DNA from: a virus | Direction: 5' to 3' (one strand) | Virus record (IMG/VR): IMGVR_UViG_3300027969_000055 | Coordinates: 52,371 to 116,370 of that record | DNA: 64,000 bases | Shown here: piece by piece, positions 4,845 to 28,671 of the stretch | Layout of the letters: every line of letters starts with the position of its first letter | How positions within the stretch are numbered: position 1 is the first letter of the stretch | Made by a program: the position numbers and the translations under genes | Notes under the pieces: generated by a model | Database searches by the model: none | What the model was told of the DNA's origin: nothing | The model's input: only the letters and a program-made list of their open reading frames with translations

Positions 4845-4853
4845 AATAAATAA
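4845..4853 (+). promoter_or_regulatory. late promoter-like AATAAATAA
   Basis: Immediately after the terminator, upstream of the small head-protein cluster. Confidence 0.55.
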
Positions 4854-4886: not shown

Positions 4887-5252
4887 ATGAGCAATTCTGT
4901 TTTAAACTACTCACAATTTCTTTTAGAAAAGAAAGCAATCAACCAAGAAATGGCTGAATTACCTAAAGGTAAAGGTTCAAAATCTAACACTACTGTAAAA
5001 CCAGCAATGTCTGAACTTCCTAAAGGAAAAGGAAAGGGTATTAGCAAATCAGTAAAACCTGAAATGGCTACTCTTCCTAAAGGAAAAGGTAAAATGATTG
5101 GCAAATCAGTAGATACAAAAGTTTCTAAATTACCTACAACTAAAGGTTCTTCACCTAAAAAATCAGTAGACTCTAAAATGTCTAAATTGGTAATTAAAGG
5201 TAAAGCTATTAGTAAGAAAGTTGAGCCTAACATGGCTAAAATGCCTAAGTAA
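4887..5252 (+). CDS. Lys-rich repetitive basic protein, putative internal head/DNA-condensing protein
   Basis: N-terminal LNYSQFLLE motif, then about five 19-aa M-x-x-LPKGKG repeats. Confidence 0.7.
   Translation: MSNSVLNYSQFLLEKKAINQEMAELPKGKGSKSNTTVKPAMSELPKGKGKGISKSVKPEMATLPKGKGKMIGKSVDTKVSKLPTTKGSSPKKSVDSKMSKLVIKGKAISKKVEPNMAKMPK
4950..5249 (+). repeat. about 5 degenerate 57-bp (19-aa) tandem repeats
   Basis: MAELPKGKG.. / MSELPKGKG.. / MATLPKGKG.. / VSKLPTTKG.. / MSKLVIKGK.. Confidence 0.8.
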
Positions 5253-5271
5253 TTAAAAAACCCATTCTGAA

Positions 5272-5577
5272 ATGTCAGATCAAAACAAACATAAGGTCAC
5301 GTCCTTTCAGTCGTTCGTTGTTCAAGAAAATTCAATAAAGGATTTAGTTGGAAAAACTGATGATGAGCAATTGGACTTAGATGATGCTCGTAGTATCGGA
5401 AAGAAGATTTCAAAAATGAAAGGTGAAGATCGTAAGAAATACGTTGGAATCGTTAATTTTATGGGAGCATCTTGTAGAATTTACAATGAGATTTGGGCTA
5501 ACTATAAACCAGTTGATCCATCAACTAAAAAATCAAACCGTGGAAAAGAATTCCAAGGTGAAAAAGAAGTAGGTTAA
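5272..5577 (+). CDS. hypothetical protein, putative internal head protein
   Basis: ORF in the late cluster; VTSFQSFVVQE N-terminal motif. Confidence 0.65.
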   Translation: MSDQNKHKVTSFQSFVVQENSIKDLVGKTDDEQLDLDDARSIGKKISKMKGEDRKKYVGIVNFMGASCRIYNEIWANYKPVDPSTKKSNRGKEFQGEKEVG

Positions 5578-5580
5578 TAA

Positions 5581-6720
5581 TTGAGCGCACAAGGAGTAAT
5601 AGCTGAATCAACCGTAAGTTTTAAAATAACTTGGGATAATCCAGGCAATGGTCAACAGCCAAAGTGGGATCAAAATAAACAGTCAATTGAGTTACATCAA
5701 ACTGATGTTTATCCTGATCTGGAATATGTATCAGCATTTGCAGCTCCAATCTATACTAAGTATACGTCTGGATCACTTCTAAATGACTTAATAGTTGAGA
5801 TCAATAAAGTTATTGACTCTAAATTAGCAAGTAAGTCTGACAAAAAGAAAAAGGTTGATGAATTGTATCTTAATTCTGGACCTTCTGCTCCTAAACAATT
5901 AGGGGCTGGCCAAGAAGAAGATGCTGAAGAAGATGATGAATTGTATCTTAAGGCTGGACCTTCTGCTCCTAAACAATTAGGGGCTGGCCAAGAAGAAGAT
6001 GCTGAAGAAGATGATAAATTATATCTTAAGGCTGGACCTTCTGCTCCTAAACAATTAGGTGCTGGCCAAGAAGAAGAGACCCAGATTAAAGCAGATGATG
6101 AGAAGCCCGCTGAGATTATTGATACTAATAAAGAAGTAGATGATGAACCTAATGTGAAGACTGATGATCAGGAGTTAGTTACTGCAACTACCACCATTGC
6201 ACCAGAAAAAAGAGCGTCATCTGCGTACACAGTTACAGTATACGGAGATAAACTAAGATTTTTAGAGGGTCAAGAAGGAAGAGGAGCTTATTCTGCTGGA
6301 ATTAAGTTTCTATATAAAGTTTCAAATAACCTGACCAAACAAGTAGCTGGAGATAAAATTGATAACCGGGAAAAGATTTGGGCAGAAGTTTCTGGATCTG
6401 GTCTATTATCAAATGTAATACGATTTGAATTTGCCGAGTTTGATGAAATTGAATTTAAGTTTGGAGGAAATTTACTAGCTCAGGTATTTCCATCAATTGA
6501 ATTAAGTTTTACGCCTGATCCAAATTCAGTGTACTCAAAAGAAAAGCCTGAACTTGATATTGCAGATGTTATTAAGGCAACTAATATTACGTTAGGCACC
6601 AAAACAACCTCTGAGATTAAGTCTCTACAGAAACAAATACAAAAAGAAATTGAATCGCGTGAACCTGTTGAAAAACAAAAGCAACCTGGTAAACAAAGCG
6701 CTTCGATTGATAATAAATAA
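5581..6720 (+). CDS. hypothetical virion-associated protein with an internal tandem repeat
   Basis: 379-aa ORF, TTG start, between head genes and tail tube gene. Confidence 0.7.
   Translation: MSAQGVIAESTVSFKITWDNPGNGQQPKWDQNKQSIELHQTDVYPDLEYVSAFAAPIYTKYTSGSLLNDLIVEINKVIDSKLASKSDKKKKVDELYLNSGPSAPKQLGAGQEEDAEEDDELYLKAGPSAPKQLGAGQEEDAEEDDKLYLKAGPSAPKQLGAGQEEETQIKADDEKPAEIIDTNKEVDDEPNVKTDDQELVTATTTIAPEKRASSAYTVTVYGDKLRFLEGQEGRGAYSAGIKFLYKVSNNLTKQVAGDKIDNREKIWAEVSGSGLLSNVIRFEFAEFDEIEFKFGGNLLAQVFPSIELSFTPDPNSVYSKEKPELDIADVIKATNITLGTKTTSEIKSLQKQIQKEIESREPVEKQKQPGKQSASIDNK
5857..6077 (+). repeat. about 2.8 near-identical 78-bp tandem repeats (DELYLKAGPSAPKQLGAGQEEDAEED)
   Basis: Copies start at 5857, 5935 and 6013 and are nearly identical at DNA level. 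Confidence 0.95.
6712..6720 (+). promoter_or_regulatory. late promoter-like AATAAATAA upstream of the tail tube gene
   Basis: Overlaps the upstream stop codon, about 20 bp before the ATG. Confidence 0.55.
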
Positions 6721-6739
6721 CTAAAAAATACGAGATAAA

Positions 6740-7327
6740 ATGGCAGGTCTACCACATTTTAAAAATTCAACAGCAGGTCCAGCTAAGTATGAACCCTTGT
6801 ACCTTAATCAATTTGAGGTGATTATTACTCCGCCGCCTTTGGTTGCAGGTAAAATCGGCTTTGGTAATAATTTAATGCTTGAACATGTACTTAAGGTAAC
6901 AAGTTTGCCAGAATATGCAGGTTCAGGTTCAGCAGTAGTTACCCAAAACTATAAATTCTCTCAAAGAACTTTTGCTCCAGCTAAACCGGCTCAAACATAT
7001 CATCAATTTACAATTGATTTTGAGGTTAACTTAAATAACAATAATGATATGTATATCTACAATGCTTTAAGAGCATGGGCAGATTTAATATACGATCCAT
7101 TGACTGGTCGTCAAGGCCTAAAGACTGATTACGCCGATGCAAGCATTCAAGTAACTCAGTTTAATAGAGCTGGTGTAATTTATAGAGATTTTACATTTGG
7201 TCCAGTATTTATTGGTCCAAACAAAATGACTGAAACTGTTCTTGACTATACAGCGGATAATTCAATTTATAAGTTAACTGCACAGTTCACAGCAGATGCT
7301 TACAAAGAATCAAGAATTGGTCAATAA
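6740..7327 (+). CDS. gp19: Tail tube protein (T4 gp19-like)
   Basis: Size 195 aa; NQFEV, WADLIYDPLTG-x-GLKTDY, QFNRAG and LDY motifs typical of gp19. Confidence 0.8.
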   Translation: MAGLPHFKNSTAGPAKYEPLYLNQFEVIITPPPLVAGKIGFGNNLMLEHVLKVTSLPEYAGSGSAVVTQNYKFSQRTFAPAKPAQTYHQFTIDFEVNLNNNNDMYIYNALRAWADLIYDPLTGRQGLKTDYADASIQVTQFNRAGVIYRDFTFGPVFIGPNKMTETVLDYTADNSIYKLTAQFTADAYKESRIGQ

Positions 7328-7345
7328 AATAACAGGTATTATCAC

Positions 7346-8002
7346 ATGGACATTTTTAATGTAAAACGCAGAGACAATCCTTCAATGGATAGTTATATGG
7401 ACCTAAAGAAACCTGGTTTTGGCGGTCCAAATTCAAAGGAAGACTTTGATAAATCAAAAAGAAAATCACTTGAAGGATACCAACGAGTAGTTGACAGAAA
7501 TGCCGATTTCGAAGGTGGAAATTTCAATCATAATTATGATCCAACGTGGAAAGCAGTAACCCGTGATTTAATTTCAAGAACTGCAAAGAAAAAACCATTT
7601 AATCCAATGTACGCAAAACAAACAATTGCAACAGTTAATGCTGTTGAAGAAGGTACTATCAAACGCTTTGAACAATTCGTTAATGAAAACGAAGGTTTTA
7701 ATATGTTCGCTGAAGCCGAAGAAGAAACTCCAGAAATGGAAGAAACTCCAGAAATGGAAGAAGAATCAGAAGTAGATCAAGAACAAGTAGAAATGCTAAT
7801 GGCAGATTTCGGAGACGATCTTGAAGAAATGATTGATGAAATCGCTGAAAAAATGGAACTTGAAAAAGAAGAAGTTTGTGATATTTTATGTGCAGCTATT
7901 AAAAAGATGTGCGCTCCTGCTGAAGAAGAGGAAGAAGAAAATCAAGAAGGTGAAGAAGAATCTACTGAAGACGAAGAAGAAGAAGAAGAAACCGAAGCAT
8001 AA
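7346..8002 (+). CDS. hypothetical protein with a very acidic C-terminal half, putative head core protein
   Basis: Glu-rich C-terminus; internal IKRFEQFVNE motif. Confidence 0.7.
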   Translation: MDIFNVKRRDNPSMDSYMDLKKPGFGGPNSKEDFDKSKRKSLEGYQRVVDRNADFEGGNFNHNYDPTWKAVTRDLISRTAKKKPFNPMYAKQTIATVNAVEEGTIKRFEQFVNENEGFNMFAEAEEETPEMEETPEMEEESEVDQEQVEMLMADFGDDLEEMIDEIAEKMELEKEEVCDILCAAIKKMCAPAEEEEEENQEGEEESTEDEEEEEETEA

Positions 8003-8005
8003 TTA

Positions 8006-8359
8006 ATGAAGCTGATTAAATTATTTGAACAATGGGTTTCTGAAGAAGAAAAGGCCGTAGATTCTCCTAAAGCTGAGGATACTACAAAACCATCTAATTC
8101 ATATAATCTTAAAGTATCAACTAATCAAGTTGGTAACTTTGAAGTTGTCGGAACATCTGAGTCAGAATTAACAACTGACTCGACTAAGTCATTTAACGTA
8201 ATTAGCTCTACTAATGCAAGTATTAAGAACGGCGCAACTATTATGGTTTCTCCAAAAGCTGATACTGATGGAGAATTTGATATTGTTATTGTAAATGACA
8301 AAAGTAAACCGGAAGAATCATTAATTTATTCAGGCACAGTAGAAACTACTAAATCGTAA
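8006..8359 (+). CDS. hypothetical protein, putative internal head protein
   Basis: MKLIKLFEQWVSE N-terminus. Confidence 0.65.
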   Translation: MKLIKLFEQWVSEEEKAVDSPKAEDTTKPSNSYNLKVSTNQVGNFEVVGTSESELTTDSTKSFNVISSTNASIKNGATIMVSPKADTDGEFDIVIVNDKSKPEESLIYSGTVETTKS

Positions 8360-8383
8360 ATTCTAAGTATACAAAATTAAATT

Positions 8384-8406
8384 AGGGGCTTTACTGCCCC
8401 TTTTTT
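8384..8406 (+). terminator. terminator between convergent units
   Basis: aggggc-tttact-gcccct followed by a T-run. Confidence 0.7.
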
Positions 8407-8792
8407 ATTGTATATACTCCAGCTAATTCACCTATTTCCAATTCAGAATCAATTAGATGTGGAACAAAGGTTATTGTTGAATAGGCTGTATTCAAGAACT
8501 TAACCGTATTATTAATATTACTTGTGCTAAGCCCTGCGTTAACGTAAATTATTCGATTATACTTTCGATTTCTAACATTAACCGCTTTGTCTATGAGTTT
8601 CTTAATCTCATAGTTAATTAAGAATGACTGTATTCTATTTGGGACTAGAATGTCCTGATCAAATTTTTCCTTAATGATTTTATTTACGTTTAGTAAATAG
8701 TCACATTTTTGTTTTTTAGTAAAAATTTGAATGAATTGTTTTTGATCCTTTACGAAAATTATTTCGAGAGTACGATCTATTGAATCTATCAT
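8391..8792 (-). CDS. hypothetical protein
   Basis: ORF coupled to the dCMP deaminase gene by an ATGA overlap. Confidence 0.65.
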   Translation of the reverse strand: MIDSIDRTLEIIFVKDQKQFIQIFTKKQKCDYLLNVNKIIKEKFDQDILVPNRIQSFLINYEIKKLIDKAVNVRNRKYNRIIYVNAGLSTSNINNTVKFLNTAYSTITFVPHLIDSELEIGELAGVYTIKKGQ

Positions 8793-9250
8793 ATCGAATC
8801 ATGGTCGATTTTTTTAACCTCAATTCCAGCACGGCGTAAAAAATCTAAGCCGTGTATATCTCTATATTCTTCAAGATACACAACTCTTTTAATACCTGAT
8901 TGTAGAATTAATTTGCTACAGTCGGTACATGGAGAATATGTGATGTATAAGGTTGCGCCATCGCTACTTTGAGTAGACTTAGCGACTTTTGCTAGTGCAT
9001 TGGATTCGGCATGTAAAACATACCATTTGGTTTTATATTCTTTAAACGAACCGTCTTCATTATTAATAGCCTCTTCGCATTCATTTTCAAAACCAGACGG
9101 GGTTCCATTGAATCCATCTGATATAATAGTGTTGTTCTTTACGATTAAAGCGCCAACTTTTTTTCTAGTTGCATGAGATAGCTCTGCCCAAACTTGGGCC
9201 ATTTTAATGTATGCTATATCTATTTTATGTTGCTTTTGAGACATTATCAT
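8789..9250 (-). CDS. cd: dCMP deaminase
   Basis: KVGA, GFNGTPSG, HAESNA and SPCTDC zinc-binding motifs. Confidence 0.92.
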   Translation of the reverse strand: MIMSQKQHKIDIAYIKMAQVWAELSHATRKKVGALIVKNNTIISDGFNGTPSGFENECEEAINNEDGSFKEYKTKWYVLHAESNALAKVAKSTQSSDGATLYITYSPCTDCSKLILQSGIKRVVYLEEYRDIHGLDFLRRAGIEVKKIDHDSI

Positions 9251-10131
9251 TTAGATTTAAAGGTTTTATCATATATCCATTTAAAAATATCTTCTCCATC
9301 TTGGAATAAGATAATATCATTGGAACCTGATATAATAGAATTAAAAAGTGTTTTAAAGTCAGAAGTTTGACTGCCGTCTATTTCAATTAAATCTGATATT
9401 ATTGGAGGTAGTGTTATTGAGGTGAATGGTTCAGCTATCATTCTTGAAGCAATATCATAATGCCTATCGTAGACATGATATGAGTTTGCAACATGAGTAT
9501 AGGTTCCTAATTCAAGATCTGGATAAAAGCGCTTTAGATGAGATAGTATTTGCATTTGTAATGAACAGAAAAATGCAACATCAGTTGCTGTACCCCATAT
9601 TGCATCATTACTTCTCATGAATACGCTCATGTACAACTTATTTTGTCTAATATGTAAATTTGCATACATTGTACAAACAAAATCTTTATTTGAAGAATAT
9701 TGGTGTTTAGGTTTATTAAAATGTAATACGGCTTGCCTGGTGTTTTGATCAGTTGCTAAGCTTTGAATTGCCCATTGATACTGGTTTATTTCATGCTCAT
9801 TCTTTTCGGTAAAGATTAGATTACCATACGCTGAATTAACCGTTCCATCAATGTTTTGAATTTCTTCCCAGAACTTTGCCCATTTTGAAATAAAAGCTGC
9901 ATCATTACGACCTGAATAATACCATAAGAACTCGGCAGCAATGTACTTCTGCTGAGAACTTCTAACTGAATTTTCATAAAGGCACTGGGTTGGATCTTCA
10001 ATAACTAACGCAACATCTAATAATTCTTTACTAGTGGTACCTCGTGCATTATTAATCAGCCCATCAGTTAATAAAAACTTAATAGAGTCACGATATGCAT
10101 CAGCAAATGTTAAACCTTTAAATACTATCAT
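9247..10131 (-). CDS. Thymidylate-synthase-family enzyme, dCMP hydroxymethylase (gp42)-like
   Basis: EFLWY, AYG, DFVCT (catalytic Cys), MRSND, GTATD and SYHVY motifs. Confidence 0.8.
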   Translation of the reverse strand: MIVFKGLTFADAYRDSIKFLLTDGLINNARGTTSKELLDVALVIEDPTQCLYENSVRSSQQKYIAAEFLWYYSGRNDAAFISKWAKFWEEIQNIDGTVNSAYGNLIFTEKNEHEINQYQWAIQSLATDQNTRQAVLHFNKPKHQYSSNKDFVCTMYANLHIRQNKLYMSVFMRSNDAIWGTATDVAFFCSLQMQILSHLKRFYPDLELGTYTHVANSYHVYDRHYDIASRMIAEPFTSITLPPIISDLIEIDGSQTSDFKTLFNSIISGSNDIILFQDGEDIFKWIYDKTFKSK

Positions 10132-10174
10132 ATTTTTTGTTAATTTTAATCAAACTTACAGTTAGATCTTATCT

Positions 10175-10202
10175 AATATACTAAGAAAATAGAAAAGGGT
10201 TA
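10175..10202 (-). promoter_or_regulatory. non-late promoter motif TAAC-N17-GTATATT
   Basis: Variant of the recurring motif upstream of the TS-family gene. Confidence 0.45.
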
Positions 10203-11861
10203 AACTATTGTTAGGTCTGAGAAGTGATCGGTATTTTCAACTTGGATTTTTGTATCAAAATATTCTTCCGGAAGTGGGTCATGTGAAATTACAAAGACTG
10301 TCATGTTATATTTCTTTGAAAATGTTTTAAGTAAATCAACTACTCTAAATATTGAATCAACGTCTAACGACGAAAATACTTCATCTAAGAAAAGAAGATT
10401 TACTTTATTGTGCTTTAGTTTAATTAGTTCAAGAATACATAAAAGTACGATTAAATTCATTTTCTTTTGTTCTCCAGAAGACAATGAGTCTGGTGAAACT
10501 TGCATTCCTAAATGAGTAATGATTGGATTAAATTCCAAATCAAACTCAAATGCAAATTTGAATTCAAGAACCTTGGCAGTCTTTAAGATCTTCTTGTTCA
10601 ATAATGGAATAATTTGACTCATTAACATCCGCTTCATACCATTATCGGATAGAATCATTTCCATTTCTTGAGAAACTTTTAATTTTTCGGCTTGGCTGGC
10701 TAAACTAGTACCAGCGGTTCTTATTTCAGTTTCGATATTTTTTATTACTTCAACTAGGTGTTTATCGGACGTTTGTTTACCTTGCTGAGATAACTGTTGG
10801 ATTTCTCTCTTTGCTGCGGACAACTGTGCATCAATTTTATAAAATTTATCCTTTGCTTGACTTTGATTATTATCAATAGTAGATAAGGTAGATTCAAAAC
10901 CTTTAATTTTTTCAGAAATATCTGGGATTGAAGTTTCCTGAGTCTCCTTTAATTTTAACAATTTATCTTTGATTTGACTGTGAATTTCATCAGTTAAGTC
11001 GGAAAGGCAGTGAGGACACTTATTTTTATTGTAAAGATCAAGTTTCTTTTGTATTTCTGAAATATTTGCTCTAACTGTAGTTAATTCATCACGAGATGTT
11101 CTAACCATTGTTTGTATTTCTGAAAGCTTTGTTGTAAAACTACCTGCTTCAACCCGAGCTGTCTCTTTTAACTCAACCAATTTAGCAAGTTCGGCAGTTA
11201 GTTCTTCAATTCTAGCTGTGTTAGTTGCCTGGATTTCGTTTTTTAAATTTTCAAGTTGGTTAACTGATGATTCTAATAATCTTTGGTTACTTGCAATTGA
11301 AGACTCAAGAGGAGTAATTTCTCCCTTAACTCTTTTAGTATCTTCTTTTGCAATTTTAGACATATCATTAACAATATCTAATCCAAAAATTTTATCAATG
11401 ATTTGGCGCTTATCTGCTGGGCTCAACTTAACAAAACTTTTAAAGTCGTTTACTGATAAGCTAATAGTATTTGAAAATACGTTAAACGGTAACTTAGTTA
11501 GTTCCTCTTCAATGAAGTCATCAACTCTTCTTTTATCTGGTAAATTATATTCAGCTCCGTCAATTGATAATTTTGAAAAATTTGGCTCAAGTCCACGTTC
11601 TATATCAATAAGCCTACCATTACCAGTTGTAAATTTAATTTGAGTATAGGCATTTTTATTAATACGATTTGGAATTTCTTTGGTTTTACGAATTGCCGAC
11701 TTTCCATAAATTGCAACAGTTAATGCATCGGAGATTGACGATTTACCGCTACCGTTTTTACCCTGAACTAAAATTAGTCTAGGGTCATCAGTAAATTTGA
11801 AAGTCTGTAATTTATTGCCGTATGAGCAAATATTTCTAAAGGAAAATTCGTGTATCTTCAT
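10200..11861 (-). CDS. gp46: Rad50/SbcC-like ATPase (T4 gp46)
   Basis: Walker A GKNGSGKS, zinc hook CPHC, signature LSSGE, Walker B LFLDE, ISH. Confidence 0.92.
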   Translation of the reverse strand: MKIHEFSFRNICSYGNKLQTFKFTDDPRLILVQGKNGSGKSSISDALTVAIYGKSAIRKTKEIPNRINKNAYTQIKFTTGNGRLIDIERGLEPNFSKLSIDGAEYNLPDKRRVDDFIEEELTKLPFNVFSNTISLSVNDFKSFVKLSPADKRQIIDKIFGLDIVNDMSKIAKEDTKRVKGEITPLESSIASNQRLLESSVNQLENLKNEIQATNTARIEELTAELAKLVELKETARVEAGSFTTKLSEIQTMVRTSRDELTTVRANISEIQKKLDLYNKNKCPHCLSDLTDEIHSQIKDKLLKLKETQETSIPDISEKIKGFESTLSTIDNNQSQAKDKFYKIDAQLSAAKREIQQLSQQGKQTSDKHLVEVIKNIETEIRTAGTSLASQAEKLKVSQEMEMILSDNGMKRMLMSQIIPLLNKKILKTAKVLEFKFAFEFDLEFNPIITHLGMQVSPDSLSSGEQKKMNLIVLLCILELIKLKHNKVNLLFLDEVFSSLDVDSIFRVVDLLKTFSKKYNMTVFVISHDPLPEEYFDTKIQVENTDHFSDLTIV

Positions 11862-12355
11862 TAATTTAAAAAATAGGTAAGTTCTTGATCTGGGTCGATG
11901 TCTTGTACTGTATAGAATTTATATAGTTTTTTATTAGAGTCATAATCCCAATTAATATTAGGTGAAGCTGATCTTCTATAAATTGAACCAAACCCTAACA
12001 GGATTGCATGTGAATCAATATGAAGCATTTTATTTGGATTAATTACATCATATACAATTGCTTTAAATTGGTCAGTTGAAATAAGGCCGCGATCCAGTCT
12101 CTCTTGTAAATTAAGTTCTGCTAATTTTTCTCCAATCTCACGTTCCTTATTCATACCGTCAGGATTAACAAATAACCGATTATCTAATATCGGATCATTG
12201 TTTTTAAGTAGAATTTGAGTTTTTTGGCTAATTGGAATCCATGCACAAAATTCAATTGTGGAATTTCTATAAATTTGAGCATTACTGAATACTCCAAACT
12301 CTTTAGCATTTATAGGTTTTACGTATAAACTTGATAATATACTTGGGTTACTCAT
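11861..12355 (-). CDS. degenerate SET-domain protein
   Basis: GVFSNAQI, GFGSIYRRSASPN (canonical GxGSLYNHSxxPN) and DIDPDQELTY (canonical DIxxGEELTxxY). Confidence 0.65.
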   Translation of the reverse strand: MSNPSILSSLYVKPINAKEFGVFSNAQIYRNSTIEFCAWIPISQKTQILLKNNDPILDNRLFVNPDGMNKEREIGEKLAELNLQERLDRGLISTDQFKAIVYDVINPNKMLHIDSHAILLGFGSIYRRSASPNINWDYDSNKKLYKFYTVQDIDPDQELTYFLN

Positions 12356-13460: not shown

Positions 13461-13461
13461 G

Positions 13462-14133: not shown

Positions 14134-14149
14134 TTAGTTATGTGTATTT

Positions 14150-15685: not shown

Positions 15686-15690
15686 ATTTT

Positions 15691-17209: not shown

Positions 17210-17231
17210 GTGTATAAAATTAATATTTAGT

Positions 17232-17261
17232 ATCTTTTACAAAGGATACTGAAATGGGTTT
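17232..17261 (-). promoter_or_regulatory. non-late promoter motif AAAC-N17-GTAAAAGAT
   Basis: Upstream of uvsX. Confidence 0.5.
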
Positions 17262-17829: not shown

Positions 17830-18487
17830 TGGCTGTAGATTTTTTGGTAGGTGTTGTACTCAACATTTTCTTCATAGTCTTTTTAATTGAGTCAGCAGTT
17901 ACGTTATTATTTATATAGTCAGACAATTTTGTCAAAAACTCTTCTTTATTCTTAGAGTTTGAGTACATCATCTTTAATAAATTTTTACTAGGTAATTTAA
18001 TTTTAACGGAGAGCGCTAAATCTGTGTCTTCTAGTGAAAACATACCAAATAAGTCACCTGGATCAGTAGAAACTTTAAGTTGAGCTGGTTGAGCAGGCGG
18101 CGGAGCTATTGGTTTTGGTGCAATAACTTCAGCTCTAAATTCTTCTGGAATTTCTTCAGATACTTTAAAATCGTCAGTTAATGAAGGAATGTAATTGATT
18201 GACTGAATTTCAGCCATTGACATTGGCGGTTGATCTTCAGTGATCATCATTAAGTCAGAAGAAACTCTGTCAGTATCAAGTTGAGTACCGTCTGATAGTA
18301 CTGCCATGAATCTACCGTTTCTGGAAGGCAGAACATCTCTAACTTGAACTACTTTTCCTAGTTTAGTTTTATCATTGGTTTTTATCCATTGAAAGTCATT
18401 CGATTGGAAGCTGCTCTTTATTGCAACTAGGGTATCAATATCGTAATTCATAATTATGTTTTTTATTTTTTTAAGCCACTTTTTCAC
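17822..18487 (-). CDS. hypothetical protein
   Basis: 221-aa ORF overlapping the polymerase 3' end; no PolB motifs. Confidence 0.65.
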   Translation of the reverse strand: MKKWLKKIKNIIMNYDIDTLVAIKSSFQSNDFQWIKTNDKTKLGKVVQVRDVLPSRNGRFMAVLSDGTQLDTDRVSSDLMMITEDQPPMSMAEIQSINYIPSLTDDFKVSEEIPEEFRAEVIAPKPIAPPPAQPAQLKVSTDPGDLFGMFSLEDTDLALSVKIKLPSKNLLKMMYSNSKNKEEFLTKLSDYINNNVTADSIKKTMKKMLSTTPTKKSTANA

Positions 18488-19853
18488 TTGATAATTGCTC
18501 TTCTAATTTTTTCATTTGATTCTTTGTATCAACTCTACCGTTGTATAATCTAGTAAGAATTGTTCGAGCGGCTGAATCATTTTTATTTGTGAAGACCGTA
18601 TCGTTTTTTGTTAATATTTGGTCAGGTTGTATTTCAATACCAGGTTTGGTTTTTCCTAAATAAGAGTCTGGTGAAATATTAAATTGAATTTGAATGTTTG
18701 GATACATTGATGCAAAGTCAAAACATGAAACGTATTTGTAATATCCAGGTTCAGGCTTTGCAACATAGGCTCCATCGTATGTTGCATCTTCTTCCAATTC
18801 TCTTCGGTCGTTTGCCATATACCGGCCTCGGTCTAGAAACTCACGACACATTAATGATTCAGTAATGAATACTGCTGAGAATACTTTTGAAACATCGACC
18901 TTTGCAAATTTTGAAATTGCAAATGCAACATCAAGTAGTCCAAGTTTATCTTCAATCAACTTAATAAGAATTGTATCGATGATATTATACTTAATAAAGT
19001 TTTCAATATCTTGTTGAGCTTCCATCATGGTTGCATATTCACTATGGAGTTTGGTTGTTCCTAATACTAAATTCGCAATATAGTCTAACTTATAATTCTC
19101 AACTACTTTATAAGGTTTAGTATTCATAAATACTTCCATGTAATCTAAAAGACCTAAATGAACCGGCATTTTTGATTTACCAATTAATGTTTTAGAAGGC
19201 ATGGTTTTCATTGGATCAATATCTAATTTTTTACAACGGTTAATTAGATAAATCCAGTCAAATCCAATAACATTCCAACCAGTTAAGAATGGAATCTTTG
19301 GAAGAACTTTATGGAAGAAGGTTTTCATTAACTCTTCTTCAGTTTCAAAGAACAAATATTTAAGAGTAAAGGTTTGACCGTGAGCTTTGAAATATTCATT
19401 GACTTCATCTTGCATTTGTAAAATTGGAGACTCTTCTAATTTCTTCATGGTTGACATTACAAAACAAATATTATCTTCATTAACAAATGTAATCAAGTTA
19501 ACTGGCATTGCTGCTTTTGCTGGATCAGGAAACTCTTGCGAAGTTAACTGAATCTCAATATCTAAATAGTACTTCTTTGGGCTATCATCTGAATAAATTG
19601 AAGCAAGTTCGGTTTCGTCTAATCTGGTTTGAGTTAATTCCTCAAGTCTAAAACGACTTAACCATTTACCTTGAACCTTCTTTAGGAACTTTCCATCCCA
19701 ATTTCTGTGTTCAGTTGGAGTTGGAGTTAAGTTCCAATTATAGAGATCATGTGGAAGTATTGGCTTTTTCATAAAGCCAATGTTACCGTCTGGTTTATAA
19801 TAAGAAATAACAAGAGTCGAGTCTTCTGTATGAAATTCTGTGCTTACAATCAT
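18471..19853 (-). CDS. gp43: Family B DNA polymerase, N-terminal part only (exonuclease plus motif A; gp43A-like)
   Basis: ExoI DIEI, ExoII GWNVIGFD, ExoIII YNIID and motif A DFASMYP are present; the ORF stops before motifs B and C. Confidence 0.88.
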   Translation of the reverse strand: MIVSTEFHTEDSTLVISYYKPDGNIGFMKKPILPHDLYNWNLTPTPTEHRNWDGKFLKKVQGKWLSRFRLEELTQTRLDETELASIYSDDSPKKYYLDIEIQLTSQEFPDPAKAAMPVNLITFVNEDNICFVMSTMKKLEESPILQMQDEVNEYFKAHGQTFTLKYLFFETEEELMKTFFHKVLPKIPFLTGWNVIGFDWIYLINRCKKLDIDPMKTMPSKTLIGKSKMPVHLGLLDYMEVFMNTKPYKVVENYKLDYIANLVLGTTKLHSEYATMMEAQQDIENFIKYNIIDTILIKLIEDKLGLLDVAFAISKFAKVDVSKVFSAVFITESLMCREFLDRGRYMANDRRELEEDATYDGAYVAKPEPGYYKYVSCFDFASMYPNIQIQFNISPDSYLGKTKPGIEIQPDQILTKNDTVFTNKNDSAARTILTRLYNGRVDTKNQMKKLEEQLSSEKVA

Positions 19854-19871
19854 ATTGTATATTATACTAAA

Positions 19872-20351: not shown

Positions 20352-20369
20352 ATTTATGTAGTTTATATC

Positions 20370-20398
20370 ATCTTTTACCCTAAAAGTGAAAAAGGTTT
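20370..20398 (-). promoter_or_regulatory. non-late promoter motif AAAC-N16-GTAAAAGAT
   Basis: Upstream of the gp56/polymerase unit. Confidence 0.55.
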
Positions 20399-20419
20399 AA
20401 CTTTGGATACAATATTGCT

Positions 20420-20491
20420 GATAAATAACTTTATCAACTCGTAGACAGTCTTTAAATTTATGAATTTGGGGCGAATGCGATAAATAAATAA
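20420..20491 (+). promoter_or_regulatory. tandem late promoter-like GATAAATAA sites (20420 and 20479)
   Basis: Upstream of the tail sheath gene. Confidence 0.55.
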
Positions 20492-20514
20492 CTTCAAAAT
20501 AATACGCAAAAGCG

Positions 20515-23541: not shown

Positions 23542-23565
23542 TTAATAAAAGCTTACTACAAATAA

Positions 23566-23589
23566 AAAGGACCTCAATTGAGGTCCTTT
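23566..23589. terminator. bidirectional terminator (perfect palindrome)
   Basis: aaaggacctcaattgaggtccttt between convergent genes. Confidence 0.8.
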
Positions 23590-23646
23590 CTTGTTTAGGG
23601 CCGACAGGATATGTCAGATTCCACCACTTGGTTTAAGTCCAAGAAC

Positions 23647-24219
23647 TTAGTCTTCAATTTCCATAATACCTTCCAGAACTCGAATAGAGTCAGTTGAGTC
23701 ATTATGCAAAATACCGGTTCCGCCAGCATCAGTCCATTTATTTAGTTTAGTATCAAAATCGTCAATTAAAATGTCAAATTCATTTCTGGCATATTTCCAT
23801 TTGTCTTGATCTAAAATAATTCTGGTTTTACTTGTAAAATCTTCAGGTTTAGTAACAGGTTCTTCGTCAATATGGAGGTGTAATTTAATCCATTTTGTTT
23901 TACCGGCTAAACATTCAGGACTTCTACTTGGAGCAGACAAGATAATTGGATCGTATTGTTTTAAATAGTCCCATAATTCTCTGCCGTCTTGCGTCCATGG
24001 TAAATCTGACCAAAAGTCTTCTCCCAGTTTATCTAGAATTGGCCAAATTGAATTTTTACCATGAAGTTTTTCGTATGCATGTGGAGAAAGTTTTTCAGGA
24101 TTTTCTGGGATTTCCATAAAGCCTCGATTAAAATCTACTAAGACTCCGTCTAGGTCGCAGAAAATTGTGTATTTTCCGCCTCTTTTTTCAAAGATAAATT
24201 GGTCAAATTTCTTAAGCAT
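23647..24219 (-). CDS. HAD-family 5'(3')-deoxyribonucleotidase-like protein with an N-terminal capsid-targeting-like motif
   Basis: DLDGVLVDF, ILSAP, GKTKW and LIDD motifs; probable start at MLKKFDQFIFE (24219), overlapping the groES stop. Confidence 0.8.
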   Translation of the reverse strand: MLKKFDQFIFEKRGGKYTIFCDLDGVLVDFNRGFMEIPENPEKLSPHAYEKLHGKNSIWPILDKLGEDFWSDLPWTQDGRELWDYLKQYDPIILSAPSRSPECLAGKTKWIKLHLHIDEEPVTKPEDFTSKTRIILDQDKWKYARNEFDILIDDFDTKLNKWTDAGGTGILHNDSTDSIRVLEGIMEIED

Positions 24220-24544
24220 TTTCTTTAAGTTCAAATTGGGTATCTTGATCTTTGTTAATTATGGCCAAAAGATCGTTTGCCATTACTAGGTGATATCCGA
24301 TACCGTCCCAAGTTACGTCAAGGCCTGAATATCTTTGATATAGAACCTTATCACCAGCTTTAACTGGGCATTTTGAATTATCTGGAACTGAATGCCCTAC
24401 TGAGATTACTGTTCCAGTATTTGGTCTCTTACGTGCATCAACTGATAGAATAATTCCAGTTTCAGTTTTTTTCTCTACTGTATCTGGTAAAACCAGGATT
24501 CTCTCGAATAGCGGCATAAAGCCTTTTGTTATATCAACACTCAT
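24212..24544 (-). CDS. groES: Co-chaperonin GroES
   Basis: PLFERILV, mobile loop TETGIIL, GTVISVG, VKAGDKVLY, DLLA. Confidence 0.9.
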   Translation of the reverse strand: MSVDITKGFMPLFERILVLPDTVEKKTETGIILSVDARKRPNTGTVISVGHSVPDNSKCPVKAGDKVLYQRYSGLDVTWDGIGYHLVMANDLLAIINKDQDTQFELKENA

Positions 24545-25656
24545 TAGTATTTATAATTTTTTTTGAATTTGTAATAATTAAATTTACGGCGAACGGTTAA
24601 ATCAACGCTTGCTTTTATTGCATCAAGTACGTCAGTTGGAAAAAGCTTTGTACTTAATCTTACTAGTGTCTTATTACGATGGATGTTATTCTCGATCGTC
24701 TGCCATTCACCTGGTTCCTTTATCTTTAGAGTATCACATGTTATTTCACGCATTACATCAAGGAACCCAGAATCACCCGAATCGATTAGTTCTTTAACAT
24801 CAGACCACTCATATGATTCTCTAACATGCTCTATTATTTTAGTTACTTTAGAAGCAGTCATTTTTGGATGAACTCTTGGAATATTATCAGAACTGTCTCC
24901 AGCTAAACACTTTGTTAAAATATCTAGGGTTGGATCAATTGTTAAGTGTTGATAGTCTTTTTGGGTTAAGTCATTTATTATATTGATAACTGCTGAATTA
25001 TCAATTGACTCAATATCAAAATCAAATAAATTAATTTCTGCGGGCTTTTCGTCTTTACCAAAATCTTCAGTTGTATAAATCTTTTTATACTTTGTCATTT
25101 GTTTTGGCATAATTAAAATAACCTTTCGCTTATTGCTTTCTAATAATTGAGTTAAGTCTTTATCCACTGACCAAATACAAATATCTTCATTTAGATTTTC
25201 GCAAATGTAGGCAATTAAATCATCGCCTTCTGCTCCAGGTACTCGATTGACGACTACCCCGTATTCATCTGAAATTATATTTAGTATTTCAGTTTGAAAG
25301 TATTCAAAGAACAGATAAATTTTGTCATCGTATTTTCTTTGACCTTTATAACTGAAGTCTCCTTCTCCGTGAGTTTCAAAATGTTCCTTAATATATTTTT
25401 TTCTCCAACTCTTAGAGTCAAATACAAAAAATACTGATTGGATATTTTCCTTAAACGGAGCAAGAATACTTCCAAAATAATTTGTTGAAAATGATTTAAA
25501 CGAATCTTTACTACCTTGTTTAAGAATAAATTTATCATCGTTTAATAAATCAGCAACGTAATACTTTTCGCCTATCCTCTTATCGTTTGCAAGAATGTTT
25601 TTAACAATACTTACTGCTACGTTTAAAAAAGCATTTCCGTCTATGATTAAATTCAT
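24544..25656 (-). CDS. rnh: 5'-3' exonuclease / T4 RNase H-like flap nuclease
   Basis: IIDGN, SWRK, YKGQR, EGDD, DKDLTQL and GDSSDNIP motifs. Confidence 0.88.
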   Translation of the reverse strand: MNLIIDGNAFLNVAVSIVKNILANDKRIGEKYYVADLLNDDKFILKQGSKDSFKSFSTNYFGSILAPFKENIQSVFFVFDSKSWRKKYIKEHFETHGEGDFSYKGQRKYDDKIYLFFEYFQTEILNIISDEYGVVVNRVPGAEGDDLIAYICENLNEDICIWSVDKDLTQLLESNKRKVILIMPKQMTKYKKIYTTEDFGKDEKPAEINLFDFDIESIDNSAVINIINDLTQKDYQHLTIDPTLDILTKCLAGDSSDNIPRVHPKMTASKVTKIIEHVRESYEWSDVKELIDSGDSGFLDVMREITCDTLKIKEPGEWQTIENNIHRNKTLVRLSTKLFPTDVLDAIKASVDLTVRRKFNYYKFKKNYKY

Positions 25657-25657
25657 T

Positions 25658-25936
25658 TTAATTAGTTGGTTGTTTAGGAACTTGTAATTTCTTTATTGCT
25701 TTTACAATAAGTTCAGATTCTTCTAGTGTAAATATTCCTTTAGCTTGGCAGTGGTTAGCTGATGCTACTAAAATAAGAACTGCATGTTCTGGAGTTAAAT
25801 TTACCAAAAAGTTTTCATAATCTTCAAGATTAGTATAACTAATTGAAGAAAGTAGAGTAGCTATTGGAGCGGCCTCAGGTTGATTCGCGTCAACCTGAGG
25901 AGCTTCAACTACTGGTGGTGTTTTTGATTTTGCCAT
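25658..25936 (-). CDS. hypothetical protein
   Basis: ORF fills the gap between the gp32 and rnh genes. Confidence 0.6.
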   Translation of the reverse strand: MAKSKTPPVVEAPQVDANQPEAAPIATLLSSISYTNLEDYENFLVNLTPEHAVLILVASANHCQAKGIFTLEESELIVKAIKKLQVPKQPTN

Positions 25937-25955
25937 TTTGTAGTTTAATTATTTT

Positions 25956-27008
25956 TTATAAAGATGCAAATAAATCGTCTAAGTCATCTGCTTTTGGGGC
26001 AGCTGCTTTAGCGGTAGGTTTAACTTCCGGCTCAGGTGAAGAGCTTCCAAAGTCATCATCTAAATCAATGAATGAGCTTACATTTTTTACTGCTGGAGCT
26101 GGAGTGAATTCAATATTTTCTCCAAGTGGTGCTTGCGTTCTAGCAACTGGTGCAGATAATTTAAAGTGCTTCTTCATTCTTTCATCTTTAGTGTTTGCAA
26201 CTAAATTGTCAATGATTTGTTTGTAAGGAACAATTGCTTTAATATAGTCTGCAACTTTTTCGTATTCAACATCAGTCCATTCCTTTAAGAAATATTGACT
26301 CATATCTGGTGAATTCTTTTTAAAGTATTCGCTTACAAATTGCATAACCTTAGGCTCAGTAGAAACTGGAATTTCTTTACCTTGAGTTGAGATAATTAAT
26401 GGGCTAACTTCATTCATGAATTTACTAGCACTAAAATCTCTCCATGCTTTAGTCTTACGCTTAATAACCAAAACAAAATCCTTACCGGTAGTAAGTGAGA
26501 ATGGATTGATTTTTTGAGTAGTAACTAATTCTTGTTCAGGATTAATTTCTTGTTGGATTAAGTTATCAATTGTATATCCATAAGAATATATTTTGATTTT
26601 ACCTTCCATTGTAGGAAATTGTGGATCCTTCTTGATATAAACACAAGAATAGTAATTGTAATAACGATTGAAATACTTTTGAATCTCTTCAACGATTGAA
26701 GGCTCTTCATTTTTTAATCGCTTTAATTCAAGATCAAGCGTCCAAAGAATTGATGATGCGCCGGTTGTTGATGGACAATCTACATACAACTTTTCATTGG
26801 TTAACGGGTTTATTAATTTAGCTGCATATTTTTTATAGCGGCTCTTAGTTGGATCGGTTACCCAAGGGATAAAACGAATAACTGATTTGTAAATACCGTT
26901 TTGACCTTGGTCTGGACCGGGATTGTACACGTTGTCGTCGACTTTGCGACCAGCGGATGATGATTTACCTGAGAAATCATCGAGATTAAGATTGAATAGA
27001 TCTTCCAT
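25956..27008 (-). CDS. gp32: Single-stranded DNA-binding protein (T4 gp32-like)
   Basis: VIRFIP, CPST, NPFSLTTGKDF and acidic C-terminal tail DDLDDLFASL. Confidence 0.85.
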   Translation of the reverse strand: MEDLFNLNLDDFSGKSSSAGRKVDDNVYNPGPDQGQNGIYKSVIRFIPWVTDPTKSRYKKYAAKLINPLTNEKLYVDCPSTTGASSILWTLDLELKRLKNEEPSIVEEIQKYFNRYYNYYSCVYIKKDPQFPTMEGKIKIYSYGYTIDNLIQQEINPEQELVTTQKINPFSLTTGKDFVLVIKRKTKAWRDFSASKFMNEVSPLIISTQGKEIPVSTEPKVMQFVSEYFKKNSPDMSQYFLKEWTDVEYEKVADYIKAIVPYKQIIDNLVANTKDERMKKHFKLSAPVARTQAPLGENIEFTPAPAVKNVSSFIDLDDDFGSSSPEPEVKPTAKAAAPKADDLDDLFASL

Positions 27009-27038
27009 ATTGTTTATAATGTTTAATAATTTAATAGA

Positions 27039-27065
27039 ATTGTACTAAATAAGTGTGAAGAGTTT
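27039..27065 (-). promoter_or_regulatory. non-late promoter motif AAAC-N16-GTACAAT
   Basis: Upstream of the gp32 gene. Confidence 0.6.
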
Positions 27066-27067
27066 TC

Positions 27068-27100
27068 AAAAAAAAAGGACAAGTTTTAAAACCTGTCCTT
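27068..27100 (-). terminator. terminator after the Hc1-like gene
   Basis: aaggaca...tgtcctt stem with an A-run on the + strand (U-run on -). Confidence 0.75.
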
Positions 27101-27124
27101 AAATGTGAACTTTTAGTCTAAAAA

Positions 27125-27316
27125 TTAGGCTTTAGTATCAACTTTAGATTCTTGAACGTGAGTTCGGCCTTCTTGACAAAGTGCTTTAATGTCTTGAAGA
27201 ACTTTACGAGTTCTAGTTCCAGCTGATTTATTTCCTTTTTCGTAGAATTTTCCAGCTTCTGCTTCTAATTGAGAAACGTGTTCCTTTAGCGATGTTAACC
27301 ATGTAGGTGTTGTCAT
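27125..27316 (-). CDS. Histone H1-like (Hc1-family) small basic protein
   Basis: KGNKSAGTRTRK..L..R motif typical of short Hc1-like proteins. Confidence 0.75.
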   Translation of the reverse strand: MTTPTWLTSLKEHVSQLEAEAGKFYEKGNKSAGTRTRKVLQDIKALCQEGRTHVQESKVDTKA

Positions 27317-27335
27317 AATTTCAAATATTTTTTGT

Positions 27336-27364
27336 ATCTTATATTTGAGAAATCCACCCGGTTT
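27336..27364 (-). promoter_or_regulatory. non-late promoter motif AAAC-N16-ATATAAGAT
   Basis: Upstream of the Hc1-like gene. Confidence 0.5.
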
Positions 27365-27370
27365 TAAATA

Positions 27371-28096
27371 TTAGTGATATTTGTTTGAAAATTTAGCTGC
27401 TGGGTATACTTTTTTAGCAAAAGCTATCCAAGAAGCCATAACTTTTTCAAATTCAGATTGAGAAATTACACCAGTTTTAATAAATGGGTTTAGGTATTCC
27501 GAAAATTCCTGATCAATTGGGACTCTTTTCTTTTTAGCAGATGCATACATGCCGGCTACCATTGCTGGAATTTCATCAGCTAGTAAAAAATACTGATAAT
27601 TATTTTGAGCACGAGCCCTTACTGATTTTCGGGTATTGATAATATGCCCAGCCCTTTGGTTTATACCTTTTTGTAAAAGATGTTCAAGCTCGTGTCGGAT
27701 ATTATCAACAAGTTTATAATTTAGCGCTGGATAACATTGAGGTTCGGCTTCTGGACTAATGTAAATAACTACTTCAATTTCAGGTTCTTCTACTGAATTT
27801 GCATTTGGAATAAATGCATTTGCGTCTATTGCAAAACCTTTATTTTCAAAATTAATTATCTCTGAAGGAATACCGCTAAACTCCTTAGCGATAGAAGTAT
27901 CAAATTCCTCAACTCTAACCACTTTAATTGATAAAGTAAATTCAAGTGGATTAGTATATGTAAATTCTTTAAATATTTCTTTGCCTAGCTTAGACCCTGA
28001 GGTTTTCTTAATTACGCTAAATAAATCTTTAGCAAAAATTGAGGCAAGAGAATCGTACTTTGATTCAAATATGAATTGTGAAAATCGTTTTATCAT
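27371..28096 (-). CDS. HExxH putative zinc metallopeptidase with an N-terminal capsid-targeting-like motif
   Basis: IRHELEHLLQ plus downstream Y...DEIPA; N-terminus MIKRFSQFIFE. Confidence 0.65.
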   Translation of the reverse strand: MIKRFSQFIFESKYDSLASIFAKDLFSVIKKTSGSKLGKEIFKEFTYTNPLEFTLSIKVVRVEEFDTSIAKEFSGIPSEIINFENKGFAIDANAFIPNANSVEEPEIEVVIYISPEAEPQCYPALNYKLVDNIRHELEHLLQKGINQRAGHIINTRKSVRARAQNNYQYFLLADEIPAMVAGMYASAKKKRVPIDQEFSEYLNPFIKTGVISQSEFEKVMASWIAFAKKVYPAAKFSNKYH

Positions 28097-28671
28097 TTTT
28101 TAGATTTGATAAAATTTACTTCTAATTTATTGGTTGACGTCGATAGTTTAGCATCAAAATCTATATCAATATCACCTTTGTCAATACCTAGTTTTTTACT
28201 AGACATTGCTGATTTTAGTTTATCATAAACTTCTTTATCTAGAAAACCTTCACCTCTAAGGGCATCAACTATGTCATTTTTCTTTGAATCTAATTGGTTA
28301 TCCGTGATCCATTTATCCAAATCGGCTTGATTAATTTGATATTCTTTAAATCGCTTAACTCCTCCGCCTCCAGTATATTTAGAATGCCATTTCTTATCAT
28401 CATCAATTAATACTACGTTAATATCGCCAGTTTGACCAGCGGTTGGAGCTGGCGCATTTGGGTCTGGTGGTAATTCAGCAGTTGCAAATGGATCAGTTGG
28501 AGCCGGAGCCGTTGCTGGCGCTGGTGAATTTTCGGAAGGTAATGGAGCAGGTTCAACCGCTGGAGCGGCGTCAGTCTCACTAGGAGATGGGGGTTCAACT
28601 GGTGGTGGAGTTGGAGCAGGTTCATCAGCTTCCAATAATAACTTAAATTGTCTAAAGTCTAGTATTTCCAT
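28093..28671 (-). CDS. Pro/Ala-rich protein, putative internal head protein
   Basis: MEILDFRQFKLLLE N-terminus, long PA-rich linker, late promoter upstream. Confidence 0.65.
   Translation of the reverse strand: MEILDFRQFKLLLEADEPAPTPPPVEPPSPSETDAAPAVEPAPLPSENSPAPATAPAPTDPFATAELPPDPNAPAPTAGQTGDINVVLIDDDKKWHSKYTGGGGVKRFKEYQINQADLDKWITDNQLDSKKNDIVDALRGEGFLDKEVYDKLKSAMSSKKLGIDKGDIDIDFDAKLSTSTNKLEVNFIKSKK

Follow-up and report, generated by a model that had tools for sequence, protein, structure and literature searches.

A probable T4-type capsid-targeting tag on unrelated proteins, enzymes included, of an uncultured large phage

Bases 52,371-116,370 of the 116,370-bp virus record IMGVR_UViG_3300027969_000055 (IMG/VR), i.e. 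its second half, form the 64,000-nucleotide stretch analyzed here (the window), and they raise a simple question: why do several otherwise unrelated proteins, enzymes among them, begin with much the same run of residues? The original prediction had taken this run for a portable tag akin to the capsid targeting sequence (CTS) of phage T4, by which proteins are loaded into the phage head. We consider it likely that the motif is this lineage's version of the T4 capsid targeting and cleavage sequence, and the proteins bearing it probably travel inside the capsid and are injected together with the genome. The machinery, the register of the motif, its placement outside the fold, its conservation and its specificity in T4 all speak for a portable tag on unrelated proteins, whereas packaging, cleavage and injection are what we infer from them.

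CheckV rates the record as 43% complete, and a related 270-kb record (G005) is rated complete, so that the phage is probably a jumbo phage of about 270 kb. Since the record is partial, all counts made on it are lower bounds. Coordinates are those of the window unless marked as genome coordinates, and strands are given as + or −.

An N-terminal leader shared by unrelated proteins

The leader is N-terminal, is about 10 residues long and has the consensus (M)(K)-[ILV]-K-x-[FY]-x-Q-[FW]-[ILV]-x-E. All seven copies originally listed are found where they had been placed: six begin 1-8 residues past a start codon, and the seventh is internal, at residues 105-114 of a protein of 218 amino acids (aa). 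A six-frame scan of the window by regular expression returned 10 matches, i.e. the seven known copies, two on the strand opposite real genes, in short frames, and a last one inside a 98-aa open reading frame (ORF). The rest of the record, beyond the window, has four further N-terminal copies, on a 281-aa GH24 lysozyme (MKH-INLFESWVNE; Pfam 2.1e-7), on two acidic proteins of 193 aa (MK-VLRFNQFITE) and 256 aa (MK-LQRFQQFINE), and on a 520-aa MoxR-type AAA+ ATPase (MSRI-IKSYPEFLAE). The earlier count of at least 7 proteins holds and is too low, as there are at least 10 N-terminal copies in the partial record and 22 in its complete relative. The bearers belong to differing Pfam or PHROG families or to none.

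Scanning the N-termini of the record and of its relatives shows N-terminal enrichment in both. By a strict regular expression, 10 of the 122 ORFs of the whole record are tagged within their first 16 residues (1,952 positions), against 3 matches in the remaining 34,569 positions (odds ratio 59, one-sided Fisher p 4.6e-11), and the N-terminal copies start at residues 2-13 (2-9 if ORF 5141 begins at a later ATG, 5174). In the complete 270-kb relative, 22/320 ORFs are tagged, compared with 10 internal matches among 76,042 positions, and shuffling yields 0.5 matches on average. Could such an enrichment be a coincidence, a result of AT-rich codon bias at N-termini, or the trace of an RNA- or DNA-level signal of the start region? 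The record has a G+C content of 34%, and the codons for Lys, Phe, Ile, Asn and Glu are AT-rich, as this explanation would have it. When residues 2-28 of every ORF were shuffled 2,000 times with composition kept, there were on average 0.059 matches and at most 2, against the 10 observed. The same strict expression matched 3/261 ORFs of T4, 2/196 of Pelagibacter phage HTVC008M and 0/217 of Flavobacterium phage immuto, all AT-rich phages with S77 proteases; these low counts indicate that composition does not account for the motif and that T4-like phages do not generally share it; it has expanded in the present lineage. The 11 tag-coding 24-mers have a mean identity of only 52% (44% at third codon positions), which argues for a peptide signal and not a DNA repeat, and both the internal copy and the scaffold repeats described below are conserved far from start codons. 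Chance or a nucleic acid signal is, on these figures, an extremely improbable source of the motif.

The link to T4 lies in the register of the constrained positions. The first 10 residues of T4 IPIII suffice for incorporation into the head, and within the T4 CTS residues 4 and 7 mainly govern targeting, and residues 8 and 10 processing (PMC9026906). In the T4 record, ipII and ipIII start with MKTYQEFIAE followed by Ala, such that the residues concerned are Y4, F7, I8 and E10; ipI starts with MKTFKEFTSTTTPVSTITE, and the gp23 propeptide ends with AFGSFLTE before AEIGG. In the same register, the logo of the present tags has [FY] at 0, [FW] at +3, [ILV] at +4 and Glu at +6, with a preference for [ILV]-K at -3/-2 and for Gln at +2; among the 10 record tags, these four positions are occupied as stated in 100%, 100%, 90% and 80%, respectively. 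The strict expression is also specific within T4, where its N-terminal matches are only ipII, ipIII and gene 61.1, with one further match being internal. Gene 61.1 (NC_000866, 18966-19130, −) encodes a 54-aa hypothetical protein that starts with MKTFKEFIKE.

The tag recurs across relatives. A search of IMG/VR with the capsid protein yielded 80 related loci at 60-100% identity, and 41 of them have an N-terminal match. In orthologs of the Lys-rich, 101-aa and 117-aa proteins, the nucleotidase and the MoxR ATPase, each of which is taken up below, the constrained hydrophobic/aromatic/aromatic/hydrophobic/Glu positions are retained and the x positions vary; selection thus appears to act on the tag. 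The tagged set of the complete relative includes a NUDIX hydrolase, a HAD nucleotidase, a lysozyme, a PG_binding_1 protein and a VanY-type peptidase, and 16 of its 22 tagged ORFs have no Pfam family.

Degenerate N-terminal variants, recognized by eye and with a position-specific scoring matrix (PSSM), were left out of the counts; examples are MKHIKLFEDFDLD and MSNKILNFNDFKTG. Also uncounted is a tag-like copy near a C-terminus, ILGFADFIKE, which ends four residues before the stop of a 520-aa protein without known family (genome 42866-44428, +, outside the window) and is kept in the 270-kb relative (137701-139257 there). The gene that follows opens with a degenerate tag, MKLVKTFENFMH. By analogy, ILGFADFIKE may be a C-terminal propeptide, like that reported for T4 Alt (PMC9026906). 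A second N-terminal pattern occurs on two proteins as MSILNWELYHQTKEVSKIHTDLIFEAKKPE and MKQLLDWNEYHKYADFTKSDLILEAEE (genome 3367-3762 and 10009-10773, outside the window). Each of the two adjoins a tagged gene, one directly upstream and one directly downstream, and the pattern could represent either another type of leader or a domain shared by paralogs.

The prohead protease and the repeats in its tail

The machinery that a T4-type signal would work with is encoded by the phage, with a gp23-family capsid protein, an S77/gp21-family protease and a gp20-family portal (Portal_T4 Pfam E 5.1e-68) making up a T4-type core. The prohead protease (1040-3028, +) has 662 aa and a long scaffold-like tail, and starts from a TTG codon conserved in relatives. 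It matches Pfam Peptidase_S77 (E 4.1e-10) and PHROG 207, head maturation protease (E 4.5e-35), and the sole match of its family profile in the PDB is T4 gp21 (5jbl, E 1.2e-4). Catalytic H84 (in GELDHP) and S139/S140 (in SSRAAG) are invariant in 18 sequences, and the N-terminus of the protease has conserved F-I-I-E and h-N-E sites, where h is a hydrophobic residue. The major capsid protein (3047-4768, +; Pfam Gp23 E 2.9e-41) has an [ILV]-[NF]-E site at the residue 53 column, which is conserved in 20/20 aligned sequences and makes I51-N52-E53, followed by A54, a candidate maturation site at which cleavage would fall after the Glu.

Within the tail of the protease, and absent from the original prediction, are eleven 14-residue repeats (1913-2353, +; residues 292-438). 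Eight of them are perfect copies of Y-x-x-Y-[ILV]-[AG]-E at an exact spacing of 14 residues (residues 334, 348 and so on to 432), three are degenerate, and the array is in register in 18/18 relatives examined. The core of the repeat, Y-x-x-Y-h-x-E, is the core of the tag and of the T4 sequence Y-Q-E-F-I-A-E, and with the tag PSSM one of the repeat units (VIDYSDYLAEK) takes fifth place among about 34,500 internal windows. The simplest reading is that the tag, the scaffold repeats and the h-x-E sites of the capsid protein and the protease would all be sites of one protease with extended specificity.

These elements suggest how loading may proceed. During assembly of the prohead core, the leader would bind the core, its likeliest partner being the scaffold tail repeats of the protease, and closure of the gp23-type shell would trap the tagged proteins. 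The S77 protease would then cut after the Glu, which would free the cargo and break up the scaffold array, whose short peptides would exit the head. The mature proteins would stay behind in the capsid and pass into the cell along with the DNA.

Recognition of the T4 CTS has been described just as an affinity for the core (PMC9026906, PMC5694885). The identity of tag and repeat would offer a concrete model of CTS recognition, which we put forward tentatively, as a possibility: the tag may be recognized because it is itself one unit of the 14-residue scaffold repeat, so that its bearer would co-assemble with an aromatic-zipper helix array and be released by the cuts that dismantle the scaffold. 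Two observations count against the loading scheme above and bear on this proposal as well. The array is modeled as helical with a predicted local distance difference test score (pLDDT) of 31-46 only, and the spacing of the upstream hydrophobic residue differs, being at -3 in the tags (I-K-x-F) and at -2 in the scaffold repeats (I-x-Y). If such mimicry is real, the physical binding partner of a T4-type CTS would be known, and it would be understandable how about 7% of genes could have become injected cargo; the cell-wall hydrolases and the hydrolases of nucleotides (nucleotidase, NUDIX) in that cargo could act in the opening seconds of an infection, for example on host signaling or defense nucleotides.

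Could the leader instead be an amphipathic N-terminal helix of a general kind, with a role such as recognition by phage-encoded chaperones, membrane association or entry into a cytoplasmic complex? Reasoning from the pattern, h-x-x-aromatic-x-x-aromatic-h would give a helix with one hydrophobic face. The phage also encodes an unusual chaperone set, consisting of DnaJ (Pfam 1.8e-25), a Cpn10/GroES homolog, a Cpn60/GroEL-family protein and a ClpB-like double AAA+ protein (64-972, +; 24212-24544, −; 38011-39405, −; and, outside the window, genome 18413-20392, +). A helix of this kind fails to explain the terminal Glu in about 80% of the tags and the match to the T4 processing residues. It equally fails to explain the identical core of the scaffold repeats, the four tagged genes beside the capsid gene and the specificity of the expression for internal proteins in T4, and we hold it to be very unlikely.

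Tagged proteins as candidate cargo

Four tagged genes lie directly after or beside the capsid gene. The Lys-rich repeat protein (4887-5252, +; 121 aa) carries VLNYSQFLLE at residues 5-14 (nt 4899-4928), and its orthologs in relatives retain the tag as VLNY/VLSY-x-x-[FY]-[LI]-[LFA]-E (VLNYSQFLLE, VLSYGEFLLE, VLSYDEFILE, VLNYFEFIAE). Its predicted mature form has 107 aa and an isoelectric point (pI) of 10.4; the DNA-condensing role proposed earlier has that basic charge as its only basis. A 101-aa protein (5272-5577, +) carries VTSFQSFVVQE at residues 9-19 (nt 5296-5328), with the Glu one residue later (V-V-Q-E), and the tags of its orthologs differ (VTSFQSFVIQE, IDSFRNFVIQE, LTPFKQFVIQE, VLKFRDFATNE). 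The 218-aa head-module protein (7346-8002, +) has the internal copy, IKRFEQFVNE (residues 105-114, nt 7658-7687), which separates a basic N-terminal half (pI 9.3) from a very acidic C-terminal half (pI 4.1), is found at the same place in 9/13 relatives examined and is the top internal PSSM window at 20.4 bits. An Atlas look-up of this protein gave scores of at most 0.82 and no family. In the acidic 117-aa protein (8006-8359, +), which carries IKLFEQWVSE at residues 4-13 (nt 8015-8044), the only invariant columns of the family alignment (12 sequences) are K5, L6, E8, Q9, W10 and E13, i.e. the tag.

Further along, a Pro/Ala-rich 192-aa protein (28093-28671, −) carries ILDFRQFKLLLE at residues 3-14 (nt 28665-28630), with the Glu two residues later (L-L-L-E). 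The Lys-rich, 101-aa, 117-aa, 218-aa and Pro/Ala-rich proteins match no Pfam or PHROG family, and the same is true of both acidic proteins encoded beyond the window. Besides the Lys-rich protein, five predicted mature products have a pI of 4.1-4.6. A basic DNA-associated protein together with acidic core proteins would parallel the internal and core proteins of T4.

In the head module, a further protein, of 379 aa (5581-6720, +), has an apparent TTG start. Its relatives begin with ATG and M-[IV]-G-x-G-[VI]-I-[AV]-E-S, and it therefore carries a short leader whose I-A-E ending resembles sites of the T4 gp22/gp24 type; the aromatic pair is missing. Three acidic repeats, each of about 27 residues (DELYL..GPSAPKQLGAGQEEDAEEDD), are present in the protein as well. 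Read-through into it from the ORF at 5272-5577, which is in the same frame, is ruled out by two consecutive TAA stops between them.

Several bearers are enzymes or resemble enzymes. The HAD-type 5'(3')-deoxyribonucleotidase (23647-24219, −; 190 aa) carries LKKFDQFIFE at residues 2-11 (nt 24216-24187), matches PHROG 2643 over residues 16-179 (E 9.1e-23) and has a conserved HAD motif I (DxDG), with the catalytic FCDLDG from residue 21. Its Pfam scores are under the cut-off (NT5C 16.8 bits, Hydrolase 19.2 bits), so that the subfamily assignment rests on PHROGs and on annotations from cultured phages. The tag is kept in 5/5 relatives and in 109/120 best database homologs; in most of the other 11 the leader is one residue shorter (F-x-x-F-L-E) or the start is truncated. 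The family profiles of this enzyme begin at residues 16-19, and 26 of the 30 listed homologs from cultured phages align only from there. Homologs in Atu_ph07 (MNTLFCDLDG) and Cr30 (2/4 compared) lack a leader, and those in HTVC008M (MKYSAFKAE...) and immuto (...LADLLLEE) have leaders of their own type.

The tagged HExxH protein (27371-28096, −; 241 aa; IKRFSQFIFE at residues 2-11, nt 28093-28064) had been proposed to be a metallopeptidase. Across 23 aligned sequences its family has an invariant R134-H-E-x-E-H139, Q142, G144, N146 and E175, the last lying 36 residues after HExEH, and of the 39 homologs found, the closest carry MIKRF-x-x-FI-x-E, whereas the first aromatic residue has been lost in about seven of the remotest ones. 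There was no Pfam or PHROG match, a Foldseek search against the PDB gave nothing at E <= 1e-3, and with VIA-align (wide) the best Z was 6.2, for helices only, with M1/M3 peptidases and PprI at Z 4.1-4.5. Given this lack of family or fold support, we do not call it a peptidase on present evidence. Its model has a pLDDT of 90.3, with residues 1-6 below 50 and the first helix starting at residue 12. In the two cases examined, this protein and the nucleotidase, the leader thus lies outside the folded or family domain, as an add-on.

The tagged MoxR-type ATPase heads a trio with a DUF2201_N "putative metallopeptidase" and a DUF2201 VWA-like protein (genome 8445-11917, +, outside the window), which is preceded by two ATAAATAAC motifs. 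After the predicted cut, the tagged enzymes would be near neutral or acidic, except for the basic lysozyme (pI 9.2).

The candidate cargo of this phage would accordingly comprise a very basic Lys-rich protein, several acidic proteins, the 5'-nucleotidase, the HExxH protein, the lysozyme and the MoxR ATPase, to which the complete relative adds as candidates a NUDIX hydrolase, a VanY-type peptidase and a peptidoglycan-binding protein. Head-borne cell-wall hydrolases could help entry, and a nucleotidase and a NUDIX hydrolase arriving with the DNA could act immediately on host nucleotides. An anti-defense role of the cargo is speculation.

Does the leader mark all of these proteins for delivery? 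It may be a substrate or propeptide signal of the prohead protease that acts as a loading signal only for true head-core proteins (the Lys-rich, acidic and 218-aa proteins), while on the nucleotidase, NUDIX hydrolase, lysozyme, VanY peptidase and MoxR ATPase it serves, for example, to keep the enzyme inactive or tethered until late infection, such that these enzymes are never delivered to the next cell. In keeping with this, the tagged enzymes lie outside the head module, the nucleotidase sits in a run of replication and nucleotide-metabolism genes, and the lysozyme, VanY and peptidoglycan-binding proteins could be plain lysis enzymes. However, gp21-type proteases act inside the assembled prohead (PMC9026906, PMC5694885), and a substrate must therefore be inside as well. 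The tags of the enzymes also equal those of the head module at all constrained positions, and the nucleotidase keeps its tag in the great majority of its homologs, as described above. We judge this restricted role to be unlikely, if less so than a general amphipathic helix, and favor packaging of the enzymes along with the core proteins.

Expression context bears on the tagged genes as well. The motif ATAAATAA(C), which we take to resemble the T4 late-promoter sequence, has 36 genome copies, 24 of them within 80 nt upstream of a start on the same strand, compared with an expectation of about 1.5, given the share of such positions. It precedes the genes for the tail sheath, the tail tube, the protease and large structural ORFs, at a distance from many starts of 12-51 nt (examples in the window are at 1013, 4846, 6713, 20480-20484 and 28699, the last on the − strand), and may be a late promoter like that of T4. 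One copy (4846-4853, +) lies 41 nt upstream of the Lys-rich gene and downstream of a post-capsid hairpin with a T-run (about 4797-4830), and another (about 28699, −) lies 28 nt upstream of the Pro/Ala-rich gene. With the MoxR gene, these are the three tagged genes that have ATAAATAA directly upstream; the motif also heads presumed operons that hold most of the others. The claim that most copies lie downstream of late-promoter motifs holds directly for 3/10; about 5 more would fit only by way of presumed operons, and the nucleotidase lacks such a motif. A small protein with sigma-70 region 2 (41261-41680, +; 139 aa; Pfam Sigma70_r2 E 1.8e-6), presumably comparable to T4 gp55, is a candidate late sigma factor that may be linked to ATAAATAA.

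A number of observations weigh against the tag as a packaging signal, or against how far it can be extended. By the regular expression used, 39/80 related loci have no N-terminal match; some of these are misses of the expression, in which the second aromatic residue is Tyr (MKSVLSYEEYLFE), and some loci end at the capsid gene. In one group at 60-66% capsid protein identity (L061-L070 and L072-L078), 17/17 loci gave no match, and their post-capsid gene content differs. The ORFs were called crudely, as the longest ORFs from the first ATG, so that some starts may be wrong, and the PSSM was trained on windows selected by the regular expression. The nucleotidase gene closes a run that includes GroES, RNase H and gp32, and lacks its own promoter motif. 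The tagged MoxR ATPase is followed by untagged DUF2201_N and DUF2201 VWA partner genes, and only 1/5 relatives searched has an ortholog of it, which is tagged. The 462-kb phage LR756500, which has the best full-length match to the protease, shows only three scattered core motifs in that protein and no tags in the 20 kb inspected; we rejected the same system in that phage on these grounds. The lineage is without a cultured relative, with named phages at no more than 38% capsid protein identity, and the case as a whole is built on sequence.

If the tag is nevertheless what we take it to be, the four functional positions of the T4 CTS would be far older and wider than the T-even phages, and cargo could be predicted from sequence in uncultured large phages. 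A phage head would carry a large and varied enzyme kit (nucleotidase, NUDIX hydrolase, lysozyme, VanY-type peptidase, HExxH protein and AAA+ ATPase), which would be a pool of candidate first-strike or counter-defense proteins without known families. The tag could also load foreign proteins into the capsids of Bacteroidota-type phages, if hosts are found.

The lineage and its comparison with known systems

The record belongs to an uncultured large phage of the T4 type, with a genome of probably about 270 kb. The closest matches of its capsid protein are to uncultured 460-735-kb phages, Prevotella Lak phages and Tenacibaculum phages, at 30-38% identity. Membership in a group of freshwater Bacteroidetes phages that encode bS21 (PMC9723584) was considered and rejected, as an S21 gene was not found in 5/5 records searched, the complete one included. 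Other T4-type genes are UvsW, gp32, a RecA-like recombinase and a family-B DNA polymerase. The polymerase is apparently split into two genes about 39 kb apart (18471-19853, −, and genome 31404-33026, −), one of which encodes the exonuclease domain along with the beginning of the polymerase domain, and the other the remainder of the latter. Among the replication genes are those of a histone H1-like Hc1 protein (27125-27316, −; Pfam 1.3e-17), a SET-domain protein (11861-12355, −) and a dCMP deaminase (8789-9250, −). There are no tRNA genes in the window.

Short portable peptides that load unrelated enzymes into an HK97-fold shell are familiar from the encapsulins, whose cargo-loading peptides are C-terminal, attach directly to the shell protein and are left uncleaved. 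The present tag resembles them in logic only.

Giant phages of the phiKZ/SPN3US type come closer. In phiKZ, 201phi2-1 and SPN3US, the propeptides of ejection or inner-body proteins are cut by a gp21-like protease at A/S/G-x-E (PMC5694885). Such phages share with the present lineage a large size and a gp21-like protease, as well as, by prediction here, many head-internal proteins, a cut after Glu, and propeptides that are thought to target the prohead (PMC5694885). Their propeptides, however, are mostly 79 to >160 residues long and have no common short motif (PMC5694885), whereas the predicted leaders here have 10-19 residues and a strict shared motif.

The closest parallel is T4 itself, where the CTS and its use on varying T-even internal proteins are established (PMC9026906, PMC3012670, PMC5694885). 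As with the CTS of IPI, IPII, IPIII and Alt, which is removed by gp21, the present tag is a short leader at the extreme N-terminus of unrelated proteins, with an aromatic residue, a second aromatic residue, a hydrophobic residue and Glu in the same register, and the gp21, gp23 and gp20 families are present in both. Small basic and acidic proteins are among the bearers in both, and the set of bearers varies between relatives. There are differences as well. Bearers are far more numerous here, with 10 in a record that is 43% complete and 22/320 in the relative, compared with 3 matches of the regular expression in T4. Many of them are enzymes or enzyme-like proteins of 190-540 aa, and they belong to a very distant lineage that is known from sequence alone. 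The scaffold here is fused to the protease and repeats the core of the tag, while T4 has a separate scaffold gene, 22 (gp22 was not scanned for such an array). In the literature, of which subscription journals were mostly uncovered, we found work on T4, T-even, P1 and phiKZ/SPN3US-type phages only, and neither a CTS-like tag in the present lineage nor a scaffold of CTS-like repeats. What is known, then, is the signal and the machinery; what appears to be new is their occurrence in a remote lineage, a much enlarged and enzyme-rich set of candidate cargo, and an identity between tag and scaffold repeat that suggests how the signal works.

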